The notes beneath the pieces are model-generated. The model searched no databases. It worked only from the letters and a program-made list of their open reading frames with translations, and had not been told where the DNA came from. Positions 1 to 52,533 of a DNA stretch of 64,000 nt are shown here, piece by piece (position 1 is the first letter of the stretch; every line of letters starts with the position of its first letter). The DNA is taken from assembly GCF_055900595.2 (NCBI RefSeq), contig NZ_CM148325.1; one strand, written 5' to 3'. The position numbers were made by a program, and so were the translations under genes.

Positions 1-1748
1 TGGCGGTCGGTGAAGCGTTAACCAATATTGCCGCAACGCAGATTGGCGATATCAAACGCATTAAACTTTCCGCCAACTGGATGGCGGCGGCAGGCCACCC
101 TGGTGAAGATGCAGGCCTGTATGAAGCCGTTAAAGCGGTGGGCGAAGAGCTTTGTCCGGCGCTGGGCCTGACGATTCCGGTGGGTAAAGACTCCATGTCG
201 ATGAAAACCCGCTGGCAGGAAGGTAGCGAAGAGCGCGAAATGACCTCGCCGCTTTCGCTGGTGATTTCTGCATTTGCCCGCGTGGAAGATGTACGTCACA
301 CCATCACGCCGCAGCTTTCTACCGAAGATAACGCACTGCTGCTGATTGATTTAGGCAAAGGCAATAACGCGCTGGGCGCAACGGCGCTGGCGCAGGTTTA
401 TCGTCAGCTTGGCGACAAACCGGCAGATGTACGCGATGTCGCGCAACTGAAAGGCTTCTATGACGCGGTTCAGGCGCTGGTAGCACAGCGTAAGCTGCTC
501 GCGTACCACGACCGCTCTGATGGCGGCCTGCTGGTAACGCTGGCGGAAATGGCCTTTGCTGGTCATTGCGGCATTGACGCGGATATCGCCACTCTGGGTG
601 ACGATCGCCTGGCGGCGTTGTTTAACGAAGAACTGGGTGCGGTGATTCAGGTTCGAGCCGCTGACCGTAAAGCAGTTGAAGCGGTACTGGCACAGCATGG
701 GCTTGCTGATTGCGTCCATTATGTTGGCCAGGCGGTTTCCGGTGACCGTTTTGTGATTACCGCCAACGGGCAGACTGTATTCAGCGAAAGCCGCACTACG
801 TTGCGTGTCTGGTGGGCAGAAACTACCTGGCAGATGCAGCGCCTGCGTGACAATCCGGAGTGTGCCGATCAGGAACATCAGGCGAAATCTAACGACGCCG
901 ATCCGGGCCTGAATGTGAAACTGTCGTTTGATATCAACGAAGATGTGGCAGCACCGTATATTGCCACTGGTGCGCGTCCGAAAGTTGCCGTGCTGCGTGA
1001 GCAGGGGGTGAACTCGCATGTTGAAATGGCGGCAGCTTTCCACCGTGCAGGCTTCGATGCAATCGATGTGCATATGAGCGACCTGCTGGCTGGACGCACG
1101 GGCCTGGAGGATTTCCACGCTCTGGTAGCGTGCGGCGGTTTCTCCTACGGTGATGTGCTGGGTGCTGGTGAAGGTTGGGCGAAGTCTATCCTGTTCAATG
1201 ACCGTGTACGCGATGAGTTTGCAACCTTCTTCCACCGTCCGCAAACGCTGGCGCTGGGGGTATGTAACGGTTGCCAGATGATGTCTAACCTACGTGAACT
1301 GATCCCAGGTAGCGAGTTGTGGCCACGTTTCGTGCGTAACACCTCCGATCGCTTTGAAGCGCGTTTCAGCCTGGTAGAAGTGACACAAAGCCCGTCGCTG
1401 CTGTTGCAAGGGATGGTGGGTTCGCAGATGCCGATTGCTGTCTCTCACGGCGAAGGACGCGTGGAAGTGCGCGATGCGGCGCATCTGGCGGCACTGGAAA
1501 GCAAAGGGCTGGTGGCACTGCGCTATGTCGATAACTTCGGCAAAGTCACTGAAACCTACCCGGCTAACCCGAACGGTTCTCCGAATGGTATTACGGCGGT
1601 CACGACTGAAAATGGTCGAGTCACCATTATGATGCCGCACCCGGAACGTGTTTTCCGTACTGTCAGTAACTCCTGGCATCCGGAAAACTGGGGCGAGGAT
1701 GGCCCATGGATGCGTATTTTCCGCAATGCGCGTAAGCAGTTGGGGTAA
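1..1748 (+). CDS. purL: phosphoribosylformylglycinamidine synthase, C-terminal ~580 aa (5' end lies outside the window)
   Basis: Frame is open from the window start to the stop at 1746-1748; translation carries the glutaminase-domain motif GVCNGCQMM; hairpin plus T-run terminator follows. Confidence 0.93.
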
Positions 1749-1815: not shown

Positions 1816-1825
1816 CACTATCATA

Positions 1826-1852
1826 AGCTCCCAGCTCCGGGAGCTTTTTTTG
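1826..1852 (+). terminator. rho-independent terminator of purL
   Basis: Stem agctccc(1826-1832)/gggagct(1839-1845) followed by a 7-T run. Confidence 0.75.
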
Positions 1853-1966
1853 TGTCTGTAAATCACGACAATGGGTGGTTTACCGTGTCGCTTTTTGACG
1901 ACATTTTATTGATTGATTTTATTGTAATTTAATAAGTTTATCTTAAGTTGTCTCTTTTTGGCGACA
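1853..1966 (+). promoter_or_regulatory. three GlrR (QseF) upstream activator sites, each TGTC-N10-GACA
   Basis: Exact TGTC-N10-GACA at 1853-1870, 1886-1903 and 1949-1966, upstream of a sigma54 promoter. Confidence 0.75.
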
Positions 1967-2055
1967 CAATGGCTGATTTACAGCCAAATAGCGAAGAAGT
2001 CATTAACCCATCAAAACAACGTATAATCAGTACGTTACCAAACTATTTTATTTAT

Positions 2056-2071
2056 TGGCACAGTTACTGCA
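2056..2071 (+). promoter_or_regulatory. sigma54 (-24/-12) promoter of glmY
   Basis: TGGCAC-N6-TGCA about 12 nt upstream of the sRNA 5' end; an overlapping cataat could serve as a sigma70 -10. Confidence 0.7.
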
Positions 2072-2082
2072 TAATAGTCATC

Positions 2083-2266
2083 AGTGGCTCATTCACCGAC
2101 TTATGTCAGCCCCTTCGGGACGTGCTACATAAAATTCGAATGACGCACAACAAGGTGCCTGCCGTCCAACTTCTGATATCAGCTTAGCTATATCAACCCT
2201 CGGGCGAAACGTCGAGTTAGGCACCGCCTTATTCCATAACAAAGCCGGGTTATTCCCGGCTTTGTT
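2083..2266 (+). ncRNA. glmY: GlmY small RNA
   Basis: Starts AGTGGCTCATTCACCGACTTATGTCAGCCCC, which matches GlmY from memory; about 184 nt; ends at hairpin agccggg/cccggct (2242-2260) plus T-rich tail; sits immediately upstream of glrK. Confidence 0.8.
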
Positions 2267-2324
2267 GTATCTGAACTTCCCCTCGGTTAGCATCAGGCTA
2301 TTCGCGTCTGACGAGAGTAACACC

Positions 2325-3916: not shown

Positions 3917-4630
3917 ATGCGACACATTTTTCAACGATTATTGCCCCGACGGCTATGGCTGGCAGGGCTGCCATGTCTGGCATTGCTGGGTTGCGTGCAG
4001 AGTCACAATAAGCCAGCTATTGATACGCCAGCAGAAGAAAAAATTCCGGTTTATCAACTGGCTGACTATCTTTCTACTGAATGTAGCGACATCTGGGCAC
4101 TGCAAGGTAAGTCAACCGAAACCAATCCGCTTTACTGGCTGCGGGCGATGGATTGTGCTGATCGTTTAATGCCTGCGCAGTCGCGGCAGCAAGCCCGCCA
4201 ATATGACGACGGCAGCTGGCAAAATACCTTCAAACAAGGGATTTTGCTCGCCGACGCCAAAATTACGCCTTATGAGCGCCGCCAGCTGGTCGCGCGCATT
4301 GATGCGTTAAGTACCGAGATCCCGGCACAGGTTCGCCCACTGTATCAACTCTGGCGCGACGGTCAGGCGCTGCAACTGCAACTGGCGGAAGAGCGCCAAC
4401 GCTACAGCAAACTCCAGCAGTCCAGCGACAGCGAACTGGATACTTTGCGCCAGCAACATCACGTTCTACAGCAGCAACTGGAGCTCACCACCCGCAAGCT
4501 GGAAAATCTGACCGATATTGAACGTCAGCTCTCTACCCGCAAACCGGCTGGCAATTTCTCGCCGGATACGCCGCACGAGAGTGAAAAGCCCGCGCCATCT
4601 ACCCATGAGGTCACTCCTGATGAGCCATAA
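3917..4630 (+). CDS. qseG: outer-membrane lipoprotein QseG (YfhG)
   Basis: 237 aa; lipobox LLGC; coiled-coil Q-rich C-terminus; sits between the kinase and regulator genes. Confidence 0.85.
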   Translation: MRHIFQRLLPRRLWLAGLPCLALLGCVQSHNKPAIDTPAEEKIPVYQLADYLSTECSDIWALQGKSTETNPLYWLRAMDCADRLMPAQSRQQARQYDDGSWQNTFKQGILLADAKITPYERRQLVARIDALSTEIPAQVRPLYQLWRDGQALQLQLAEERQRYSKLQQSSDSELDTLRQQHHVLQQQLELTTRKLENLTDIERQLSTRKPAGNFSPDTPHESEKPAPSTHEVTPDEP

Positions 4631-5954
4631 ACCTGCGCATTTATTACTGGTCGATGACGATCCAGGATTGCTGAAACTGCTTGGTCTGCGTCTGACCAGC
4701 GAAGGTTATAGCGTGGTTACGGCGGAAAGTGGAGCTGAAGGATTGCGGATACTGAATCGTGAAAAAGTAGATTTAGTCATCAGCGATCTGCGGATGGATG
4801 AAATGGATGGTATGCAACTGTTTGCCGAAATCCAGAAAGTGCAGCCAGGTATGCCAGTAATCATCCTCACCGCGCATGGTTCCATTCCCGATGCCGTTGC
4901 CGCGACACAGCAGGGCGTGTTCAGTTTCCTCACCAAGCCTGTCGATAAAGACGCGCTGTATCAGGCAATTGACGATGCGCTGGAGCAATCAGCCCCCACT
5001 ACCGACGAACGCTGGCGCGAGGCGATTGTCACCCGCAGCCCGCTGATGCTGCGTTTGCTGGAACAGGCGAGGCTGGTGGCGCAGTCAGATGTTAGCGTTT
5101 TGATTAACGGTCAGAGCGGTACCGGGAAAGAGATTTTTGCCCAGGCGATCCACAACGCCAGCCCGCGCAACAGCAAACCGTTTATTGCTATTAACTGTGG
5201 CGCATTGCCCGAGCAATTGCTGGAGTCAGAGCTGTTTGGTCATGCGCGTGGCGCGTTTACTGGCGCTGTCAGCAATCGTGAAGGTTTATTCCAGGCGGCG
5301 GAAGGCGGTACGCTGTTTCTCGATGAGATTGGCGACATGCCCGCACCGTTGCAGGTCAAACTGCTACGCGTGTTGCAGGAGCGCAAAGTGCGCCCGCTGG
5401 GCAGCAACCGCGATATTGATATCGACGTGCGGATTATTTCCGCCACTCACCGTGACCTGCCAAAGGCGATGGCGCGCGGGGAATTCCGTGAAGATCTCTA
5501 CTATCGCCTCAACGTTGTCAGTCTGAAAATTCCGGCATTGGCGGAGCGCACAGAAGACATTCCGCTACTGGCAAACCACTTATTGCGCCAGGCGGCAGAG
5601 CGACATAAACCGTTTGTCCGCGCATTCTCCACCGATGCAATGAAACGACTGATGACCGCGAGCTGGCCGGGTAATGTGCGCCAGTTGGTCAACGTGATTG
5701 AACAGTGCGTGGCGCTAACATCATCTCCGGTGATTAGTGATGCGTTAGTCGAGCAGGCGCTGGAGGGCGAAAATACGGCTCTGCCAACCTTTGTTGAGGC
5801 GCGTAATCAGTTTGAACTCAACTACTTGCGTAAGCTGCTGCAAATCACCAAAGGGAATGTCACCCACGCGGCGAGAATGGCGGGGCGCAACCGGACAGAA
5901 TTTTATAAACTGCTTTCCCGACACGAGCTGGATGCAAACGATTTCAAGGAATGA
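4620..5954 (+). CDS. glrR: sigma54-dependent response regulator GlrR (QseF)
   Basis: 444 aa from the ATG at 4620; receiver domain, AAA+ sigma54-activator motifs (GESGTGKE, GAFTGA) and C-terminal HTH; overlaps the qseG stop by 11 nt. Confidence 0.92.
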
Positions 5955-31664: not shown

Positions 31665-31800
31665 CCTGTTTCGTGTTGCATCTGCGTTGACTGTACATAC
31701 TCACTCCGGTCACTTACTTATGTAAGCTCCCGGAGATTCGTAAGTTTGTCAACTTGCTGAAACCCGAAACAGTTAGGTTAAAGATAACAAGATATTAGAA
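31665..31800. repeat. ERIC-like element inside the iscR-iscS intergenic region
   Basis: 31698-31741 tactcactccggtcacttacttatgtaagctcccggagattcg matches the conserved ERIC central inverted repeat; outer boundaries are approximate. Confidence 0.6.
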
Positions 31801-31895
31801 TCAGGCCGGGGCGTCTCGCGCTCCGTAAACACGGTCGTACATCCAGCCGGTAGCCTGGTTCCTTGCATTGAGTGATGTACGGAGTTTATAGAGCA

Positions 31896-51304: not shown

Positions 51305-52423
51305 ATGCATAACCAGGCTCCAATTCAACGTAGAAAATCAACACGTATTTACGTTGGGAATGTGCCGATTGGCGATGGTGCCCCCATCGCCGTACAGTCC
51401 ATGACCAATACGCGTACGACAGACGTCGAAGCTACGGTCAATCAAATTAAGGCGCTGGAACGTGTTGGCGCTGATATCGTCCGTGTCTCCGTACCGACGA
51501 TGGACGCGGCAGAAGCGTTCAAGCTCATCAAACAACAGGTTAACGTACCGCTGGTGGCTGATATCCACTTTGACTATCGCATTGCGCTGAAAGTAGCGGA
51601 ATACGGGGTCGATTGTTTGCGTATTAACCCTGGCAATATCGGTAATGAAGAGCGTATTCGCATGGTGGTTGACTGCGCGCGCGATAAAAACATTCCGATC
51701 CGTATTGGCGTTAACGCTGGATCGCTGGAAAAAGATCTGCAAGAAAAGTATGGCGAACCGACGCCGCAGGCGTTGCTGGAATCTGCCATGCGTCATGTTG
51801 ATCATCTCGATCGCCTGAACTTCGATCAGTTCAAAGTCAGCGTGAAAGCGTCTGACGTCTTCCTCGCTGTTGAGTCTTATCGTTTGCTGGCAAAACAGAT
51901 CGATCAACCGCTGCATCTTGGGATCACCGAAGCGGGCGGCGCACGTAGTGGGGCAGTAAAATCTGCCATTGGTTTAGGCCTGCTGCTGTCTGAAGGCATC
52001 GGCGACACGCTGCGCGTATCGCTGGCGGCCGATCCGGTCGAAGAGATCAAAGTCGGTTTCGATATTTTGAAATCGCTGCGTATCCGTTCGCGCGGGATCA
52101 ACTTCATCGCCTGCCCGACCTGTTCGCGTCAGGAGTTTGACGTTATCGGTACGGTTAACGCCCTGGAGCAACGCCTGGAAGATATCATCACTCCGATGGA
52201 CGTTTCGATTATCGGCTGCGTGGTGAATGGACCAGGTGAGGCGCTGGTTTCTACACTCGGCGTCACCGGCGGCAACAAGAAAAGCGGCCTCTATGAAGAT
52301 GGCGTGCGCAAAGACCGTCTGGACAACAACGATATGATCGACCAGCTGGAAGCGCGCATTCGTGCGAAAGCCAGCCAACTGGATGAAGCGCGTCGAATTG
52401 ACATTCAGCAGGTTGAAAAATAA
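51305..52423 (+). CDS. ispG: 4-hydroxy-3-methylbut-2-enyl diphosphate synthase (flavodoxin)
   Basis: 372 aa; C-terminal [4Fe-4S] Cys motif CPTCSR...C. Confidence 0.95.
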
Positions 52424-52533
52424 TAACGTGATGGGAAGCGCCTCGCTTCCCGTGTATGATTGAACCCGCATGGCTCCCGAAATATTGAGGGGCGCGTTGA
52501 GGGTTCATTTTTATATTCAGAAAGAGAATAAAC

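Follow-up and report, generated by a model that had tools for sequence, protein, structure and literature searches.

The original account of the glmY promoter is reportedly that of Reichenbach et al. 2009 (Mol Microbiol), which we know through the papers that cite it. The glmY circuit is already known, having been published by Reichenbach 2009 and by Göpel et al. 2011 (PMC3045617), and an initial annotation of the locus described here was right in calling it a known circuit, since it matches the published glmY module of Escherichia coli K-12 (PMC3045617). The dependence of glmY transcription on rpoN, glrR and ihf comes from K-12 experiments only (PMC3045617). Three GlrR (QseF) sites, ABS1 to ABS3, lie upstream of the K-12 gene, with ABS2 and ABS3 being essential and ABS1 dispensable (Göpel et al. 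2011, PMC3045617). A sigma-70 promoter with the -10 element CATAAT overlaps the -12 element of the sigma-54 promoter and uses the same start (PMC3045617), and genome-wide ChIP-seq of sigma-54 in K-12 mapped OS24, a glmY site whose motif reads TTGGCACAGTTACTGCA (PMC4591121). The 184-nt GlmY RNA is processed at its 3' end to an active form of 148 nt, which acts as a decoy for RapZ and protects GlmZ (PMC4152352); because GlmY sequesters RapZ, GlmZ is stabilised (PMC4152352, PMC7073468).

GlmZ (Rfam RF00083, clan CL00011) is a base-pairing sRNA whose 5' and central stem-loops are homologous to those of GlmY. The glmZ genes of Salmonella and Yersinia have the same GlrR/sigma-54/IHF promoter architecture as glmY (PMC3045617), whereas Escherichia glmZ has a plain sigma-70 promoter without GlrR sites. 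The promoters glnHp2 (NtrC), pspA (PspF) and the QseF-dependent promoter of rpoE likewise combine bEBP sites more than 100 bp upstream with an IHF bend and a -24/-12 element, but as a group they differ from glmY in the activator and its recognition sequence. Unusually for a promoter of this kind, that of glmY is exactly overlapped by a sigma-70 promoter with the same start nucleotide.

We compared K-12 glmY (b4441; formerly sroF/tke1) with the corresponding locus in the window, by which we mean the whole 64,000-nucleotide (64-kb) stretch of DNA that was analysed. The two share their place in the order purL-glmY-glrK-qseG-glrR-glnB, an RNA of 184 nt without indels, the sigma-54 motif, the -10 element CATAAT, the second IHF-like site, the 58-bp spacer before glrK, and three TGTC-N10-GACA sites with the same offsets and the same spacing. 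The window differs in its promoter region (1793-2082), which is about 90% identical to that of K-12 with the divergence falling mostly in the spacers between motifs, including the N10 spacers of ABS2 and ABS3; in four substitutions at unpaired positions of the sRNA; in an 18-nt indel downstream of purL; and in a T at position 1907 that breaks an otherwise perfect IHF consensus by ABS2. All of the elements are present, in position and conserved, the RNA and the proteins are those of K-12 in identity, and the locus is colinear with K-12. We put the probability at about 95% that the region represents an Escherichia glmY locus which should work as it does in E. coli K-12, and nothing that we observed speaks against this identification. 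Every element that the initial annotation named in what it called a complete module held up, but it left out the sigma-70 promoter, the need for IHF and the two IHF-like sites, the processing to 148 nt and the operon's own promoter.

Predicted GlrR sites and overlapping promoters upstream of glmY

The regulatory elements upstream of glmY are as follows, with offsets counted from position 2083.

1853-1870 (-230 to -213), no strand assigned: GlrR/QseF site 1 (ABS1), TGTCTGTAAATCACGACA, an exact palindrome and a published GlrR site (PMC3045617)
1886-1903 (-197 to -180), no strand assigned: GlrR/QseF site 2 (ABS2), TGTCGCTTTTTGACGACA, an exact palindrome
1906-1918 (-177 to -165), minus strand: IHF-like motif by ABS2, reading AATCAATCAATAA on that strand, one mismatch to WATCARNNNNTTR
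1949-1966 (-134 to -117), no strand assigned: GlrR/QseF site 3 (ABS3), TGTCTCTTTTTGGCGACA, an exact palindrome
2025-2037 (-58 to -46), plus strand: second IHF-like motif, AATCAGTACGTTA, an exact WATCARNNNNTTR between ABS3 and the promoter
2056-2071, plus strand: sigma-54 promoter, TGGCACAGTTACTGCA (GG 2057-2058, GC 2069-2070), the sole exact TGGCAC-N6-TGCA in the window
2070-2075, plus strand: predicted sigma-70 -10 element CATAAT, overlapping the -12 element and identical to the experimentally characterised K-12 -10 (PMC3045617)

The pattern TGTCNNNNNNNNNNGACA has three exact matches in the 64-kb window, namely ABS1, ABS2 and ABS3, and none elsewhere, so that the three exact TGTC-N10-GACA palindromes claimed by the initial annotation are where it had put them and are the only three in the 64 kb. 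By chance 0.79 matches would be expected (100 shuffles), and a count of three anywhere was found in 1 of the 100 shuffles. The trio is confined to 114 bp, with centre-to-centre distances of 33 and 63 bp, or about three and six helical turns; the centres lie at -221.5, -188.5 and -125.5 relative to position 2083, and the full span runs from -230 to -117. The placing of these sites 115-230 bp upstream, also claimed, is right when counted from the transcription start but wrong when counted from the promoter hexamers.

ABS1 is the same in all five aligned E. coli alleles, and its TGTC and GACA blocks are kept across 57 species in the alignment (among the matches listed). The changes in ABS2 relative to K-12 are limited to the N10 spacer, at positions 1895 and 1898, and its half-sites are the most conserved block of the cross-species footprint among the matches listed. 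The half-sites of ABS3 show no variation among the E. coli alleles; across species, among the matches listed, its TGT and GACA are conserved and the C is variable. E. coli 2013C-4282 (L126) has TGTT, not TGTC, as the left half-site of ABS2 (aligned to window 1886-1889). ABS2 was also flagged as terminator-like by a simple terminator scan, which we treated as a scanner artefact.

The sigma-54 promoter had been claimed as TGGCAC-N6-TGCA, and its single exact match in the window is that at 2056-2071. When one mismatch was allowed, the 64-kb window gave 8 matches against 7.0 expected; this is about the chance number, and therefore only the exact match is meaningful. The canonical form of the element is TGGCAC-N5-TTGCW, from which the window differs by one base (CTGCA for TTGCA). 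The 17 nt at 2055-2071 are identical to the OS24 motif of the K-12 ChIP-seq study. A generic sigma-70 scan of 1700-2400, requiring at least 9 of 12 matches, found no promoter, and because no match reached this threshold the -35 element belonging to the overlapping sigma-70 promoter is judged to be weak; we took the miss as a shortcoming of a simple scanner. The best -35 candidate, TTTATT at 2047-2052, has three of six matches, judged by eye. The window has one extra match to TTGACA at 2047-2052.

For comparison between species, loci were found in a genome collection by a pattern from the sRNA only, with one genome per species. Among the matches listed, 56 loci were kept that had glrK beside the match, mostly with purL too, and enough flanking DNA. 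Roughly half of the at least 120 pattern matches were chance matches in unrelated phyla, and Escherichia fergusonii, Escherichia marmotae and Escherichia ruysiae were unsampled. Among the matches listed, TGGCA[CT]-N6-TGC[AT] is found before the start in 56/56 loci, at an offset of -27 in 55 and -26 in one, and CATAAT stands at -13 to -8 in 35/56 species. Exact TGTC-N10-GACA sites, again among the matches listed, number two in 38 of the 56 species, one in 10 and none in 2, and all three are exact in only 6; judged by its sequence, the locus in the window is an unusually good fit to the GlrR-site consensus.

A MAFFT alignment of the matches listed has conserved blocks at the TGTC and GACA half-sites, at a core TTGATT with its TAA partner by ABS2, and at TGGCA and TGC; part of the -58 motif and the start region are conserved as well, and the remaining spacer has diverged. 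The comparison of 57 species, among the matches listed, thus amounts to a clean natural footprint of the GlrR half-sites, the sigma-54 element and the IHF-like core. The loci were not selected for promoter motifs, and the footprint therefore independently supports the regulatory annotation.

In Escherichia albertii NBRC 107761 (L007, 8920-9960), purL and the upstream sites of glmY are about 700 bp further apart, and this extra DNA holds a reverse-strand gene for a 193-aa GNAT acetyltransferase (Pfam PF00583, 49 bits). The two upstream GlrR sites of this strain end in GACG, not GACA, the third reads AGTC-N10-GACG, and the -24 element is TGGCAT.

IHF-like motifs and the substitution at position 1907

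Göpel et al. describe two IHF-like regions in K-12, with the consensus WATCARNNNNTTR, that flank ABS3, and state that IHF and an 'IHF site 1' are essential for the K-12 glmY sigma-54 promoter (PMC3045617). The same paper notes that IHF binding also occurs with little sequence dependence (PMC3045617). From the 'two regions flanking ABS3' of Göpel 2011, we infer that the motif at 1906-1918 is an IHF site. In K-12 and three other E. coli alleles this motif is a perfect consensus, and an exact minus-strand consensus stands just past ABS2 in 39/56 other species among the matches listed. The second motif, at 2025-2037, is invariant in 5/5 E. coli alleles; among the matches listed it is moderately conserved across species and is exact at about -58 in 10/56 others.

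Position 1907 is T in the window and A in 56/56 other species (among the matches listed), as it is in all four other E. coli alleles aligned. T1907 turns the TTR element of the -177 motif from TTA to TAA, and no alternative register giving a perfect IHF consensus was found around this position. Among 5,426 complete E. coli genomes, only 8 carry the promoter region 1793-2082 at 100% identity; the next best reach 95.9% (4 genomes) and the others 80-95%. A 36-nt query, all of whose 28-nt seed words include 1907, matched only the same 8 of the 5,426.

It is possible, if unlikely, that these observations reflect a weakened sigma-54 arm. T1907 would damage the TTR of the IHF-like site by ABS2 and so lessen bending by IHF, and glmY might then, though we doubt it, lean more on its basal promoter, the sigma-70 one, or on the other IHF-like site, at -58. 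The uniqueness of T at 1907, the restriction of the local haplotype to 8 of 5,426 complete genomes, the lack of another perfect register and the essential role of IHF and 'IHF site 1' in K-12 (PMC3045617) are all in line with such a weakening. However, the change affects a single base in a degenerate motif, the WATCAA core of which is intact; the consensus of the second site, at 2025-2037, is perfect; and IHF can also bind with little regard to sequence. The allele also persists in 8 independent isolates with glrK, qseG and glrR intact, which argues against loss of the circuit. We continue to prefer a glmY locus that works as in K-12. An altered GlrR/sigma-54 induction of glmY in this rare allele, should the -177 motif be the essential IHF site, is a tentative proposal with the odds well against it.

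Piece by piece, the 57 kb that the window shares with K-12 (1-57226) show 94.9-97.3% identity to it; at both of the loci tested, near-identical relatives were limited to the same 8 of the 5,426 genomes. These comparisons suggest that the window belongs to a divergent Escherichia lineage or cryptic clade and does not owe its promoter to local import. A local recombinant import was considered in view of the low identity of the promoter to most E. coli, and was rejected, since identity to K-12 is about 95% over the whole shared 57 kb.

Just past der the window ceases to be colinear with K-12, and 57227-64000 differs. This part holds sinH (57695-59887), encoding an intimin-like inverse autotransporter (NCBIfam, 1474 bits), and a SinI-family partner gene (59937-60935), followed by further adhesin-like sequence; the sinH island is found in 1,749 of 5,426 E. 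coli genomes, and K-12 is without it. Other Rfam matches above threshold lie in positions colinear with K-12, namely ryfA (39270-39574, minus strand, 312 bits), sroE (52423-52514, plus strand, 110 bits) and iscRS, the iscR stability element (31785-31894, plus strand, 118 bits). The ryfA locus of K-12 also encodes the small toxin TimP. The BLAST alignment with K-12 is interrupted at about 39666-39754, where the flanking alignments overlap by about 88 nt, and about 237 bp of K-12 between timR and ryfA are unmatched in the window.

The GlmY RNA, its terminator and the neighbouring genes

The transcribed features around glmY are the following.

1-1748, plus strand: 3' part of purL (phosphoribosylformylglycinamidine synthase), NCBIfam NF003672, 948 bits (cut-off 783)
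1825-1852, plus strand: purL terminator-like hairpin and T-run, AAGCTCCCAGCTCCGGGAGCTT then TTTTTGTGTC (terminator scan), abutting GlrR site 1
2083-2266, plus strand: predicted glmY primary transcript, 184 nt, by Rfam RF00128 and ungapped alignment to K-12 b4441
2236-2268, plus strand: glmY intrinsic terminator, with a GC core at 2244-2260, the loop TTATT at 2250-2254 and a U-tract at 2261-2268
2267-2324, plus strand: glmY-glrK spacer, 58/58 identical to K-12, in which the operon's own sigma-70 promoter is expected (PMC6075780)
2325-3752, plus strand: glrK (qseE), TTG start, coding for a sensor histidine kinase of 475 aa, 6 aa differences from K-12 GlrK
3917-4630, plus strand: qseG (yfhG), outer-membrane lipoprotein, NCBIfam NF007997, 358.9 bits (cut-off 234)
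4620-5954, plus strand: glrR (qseF), sigma-54-dependent response regulator, NCBIfam NF011695 equivalog, 980.6 bits (cut-off 763)

An Rfam scan of 2083-2266 with the GlmY model had been named in the initial annotation as the check on its RNA, with a miss as the refuting outcome. In a scan of the whole window the GlmY_tke1 model (RF00128) matched 2083-2230 on the plus strand with E 2.3e-32 and 145.3 bits (against a gathering score of 33), over the full model, positions 1-163 of 163, and the refuting outcome therefore did not occur. The match ends at 2230 and not at 2266 because the model represents the first 148 nt, without the terminator. Overlaps within clan CL00011 were resolved to the best model, and GlmY was kept over GlmZ. 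The flanking genes purL and glrK are the glmY context, as in K-12, where the MG1655 annotation has glmY (b4441) as a 184-nt ncRNA between them. Against the curated K-12 glmY, 2083-2266 aligns with no gaps and four substitutions, at 2136, 2184, 2199 and 2251, all of them the unpaired positions referred to above. From the GlmY sequences of 25 species RNAalifold derived 37 pairs, and in 10 of these there are compensatory double changes; the MFE z-score of the RNA is -5.75. The claim that this RNA is GlmY is borne out by the Rfam match, by purL-glmY-glrK synteny and by covariation in the 25 species. The Rfam match is 148 nt long, the same length as the processed active form, to which 2083-2230 would correspond, and the motif GCCUUAU at 2226-2232 spans the expected processing point. 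Both rapZ and glmZ are absent from the window.

The core of the terminator is formed by GCCGGG (2244-2249), which pairs perfectly with CCCGGC (2255-2260), and extension by A/U pairing brings the stem to 14 pairs; the hairpin adjoins or overlaps UUUGUUGU. Its folding energy is -23.3 kcal/mol (z -8.6), which 0 of 200 shuffles equalled. A generic terminator scan did not pick up this terminator, probably because the scanner extends the stem through the U-tract. The 184-nt RNA with a clean terminator of the initial annotation is consistent with these results, its length matching the K-12 feature and a strong hairpin ending it at 2266. So is the remark that gene callers usually miss glmY: a feature between purL and qseE was absent in all four PGAP-annotated E. 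coli records inspected, and the curated K-12 record has one.

On the upstream side, the ORF ending at 1748 covers profile positions 737-1289 and encodes the C-terminal half of PurL. It is colinear with purL of K-12, and as the gene next to glmY on this side it defines the synteny of the locus. Relative to K-12 there is an 18-nt insertion at 1778-1795 in the purL-glmY intergenic region, within a GC-rich REP-like stretch (GCCGCATCCGGCATT), and this stretch is variable, some E. coli genomes aligning only from about 1792 or 1846. On the downstream side, QseG has 2 aa differences from K-12. QseG is needed for the activity of GlrK and GlrR. GlrR has 3 aa differences overall, with D56 present, GAFTGA at 211-216 and a C-terminal HTH identical to that of K-12. 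A glrK-qseG-glrR operon whose product binds the upstream sites had been claimed, and the claim agrees with QseG passing its NCBIfam cut-off, GlrR its equivalog cut-off and the motifs of GlrR being intact. In the NCBIfam profile search all kinase matches of GlrK fell below cut-off and no GlrK-specific model was found. The identity of GlrK rests on its 469/475 aa identity to K-12 and on its RefSeq name; an identical gene in NZ_CP098223.1 is annotated QseE/GlrK.

Background identity to K-12 is about 95%, but the glmY-glrK spacer reaches 100% and roughly the opening 180 nt of glrK reach 99.5%. In K-12 the qseEGF operon has a weak sigma-70 promoter of its own right after glmY, with a start 25 bp before qseE; read-through from glmY 'does virtually not occur' there, nor was any autoregulation seen (PMC6075780). 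The spacer identity fits the presence there of the published qseEGF sigma-70 promoter and leader, and in the window the operon would start near 2300, 25 bp upstream of the glrK start codon. The glmY terminator and the start of glrK are only 58 bp apart, and in Proteus mirabilis the four genes were found by RT-PCR to be co-transcribed (PMC8745638), which could mean that glmY and glrK-qseG-glrR form one sigma-54-driven transcription unit that autoregulates its two-component system. We think this quite improbable, given a terminator hairpin of the strength described, a 58-bp spacer that is identical to that of K-12, and a K-12 operon that has its own promoter, virtually no read-through and no autoregulation (PMC6075780). 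A glmY RNA that ends at its terminator, ahead of a separately transcribed operon, is the reading that we retain. That the motifs arose by chance, or that the stretch codes for an overlapping small ORF (1948-2187 on the plus strand or 2093-2323 on the minus strand), has next to no chance of being right, for although a mechanical ORF list has ORFs of 79 and 76 aa over the region and the simple scan called ABS2 terminator-like, the three palindromes lie within 114 bp and nowhere else in 64 kb, the motifs keep fixed offsets in 56 species (among the matches listed), the Rfam score is far over threshold with compensatory base-pair changes in the RNA, curated K-12 has an ncRNA here without a CDS, and the stop-free stretches, in themselves uninformative, are anywhere from 50 to 115 codons long, depending on the species, and share no conserved frame.

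Expected operation of the circuit and its significance

If the locus works as in K-12, phosphorylated GlrR (QseF), which is encoded about 2.5 kb downstream together with GlrK and QseG, would bind the three TGTC-N10-GACA sites. IHF would bend the intervening DNA, so that the GlrR oligomer could touch sigma-54 RNA polymerase at 2056-2071 and bring about the open complex. The weak sigma-70 promoter, with CATAAT at 2070-2075 over the -12 element, would provide basal transcription from the same start. Transcription from about 2083 to the hairpin at 2266 would yield the 184-nt RNA, and 3' trimming would leave 148 nt (2083-2230). The processed GlmY may then mimic GlmZ and sequester the adaptor protein RapZ, in which case GlmZ would escape cleavage by RNase E and the translation of glmS would be activated when glucosamine-6-phosphate is scarce. 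A separate, weak sigma-70 promoter, located in the 58-bp spacer between the glmY terminator and glrK, would drive glrK-qseG-glrR. In this scheme the start and 3' end of the RNA, the binding of GlrR, IHF and sigma-54, the processing of the RNA and its role as a RapZ decoy are carried over from experiments in K-12.

The circuit ties the sensing of envelope precursors to GlmS synthesis and, in pathogens, to virulence, and it has been dissected since 2008-2011. The glmY locus described here adds nothing mechanistic to that work, and its practical value lies in a precise annotation where PGAP records are without glmY. T1907, a lineage-specific change at an otherwise invariant position of an IHF motif, provides a small hypothesis that is cheap to test. 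If it is true, these strains would be a natural variant lineage in which the balance between two overlapping promoters has been shifted.
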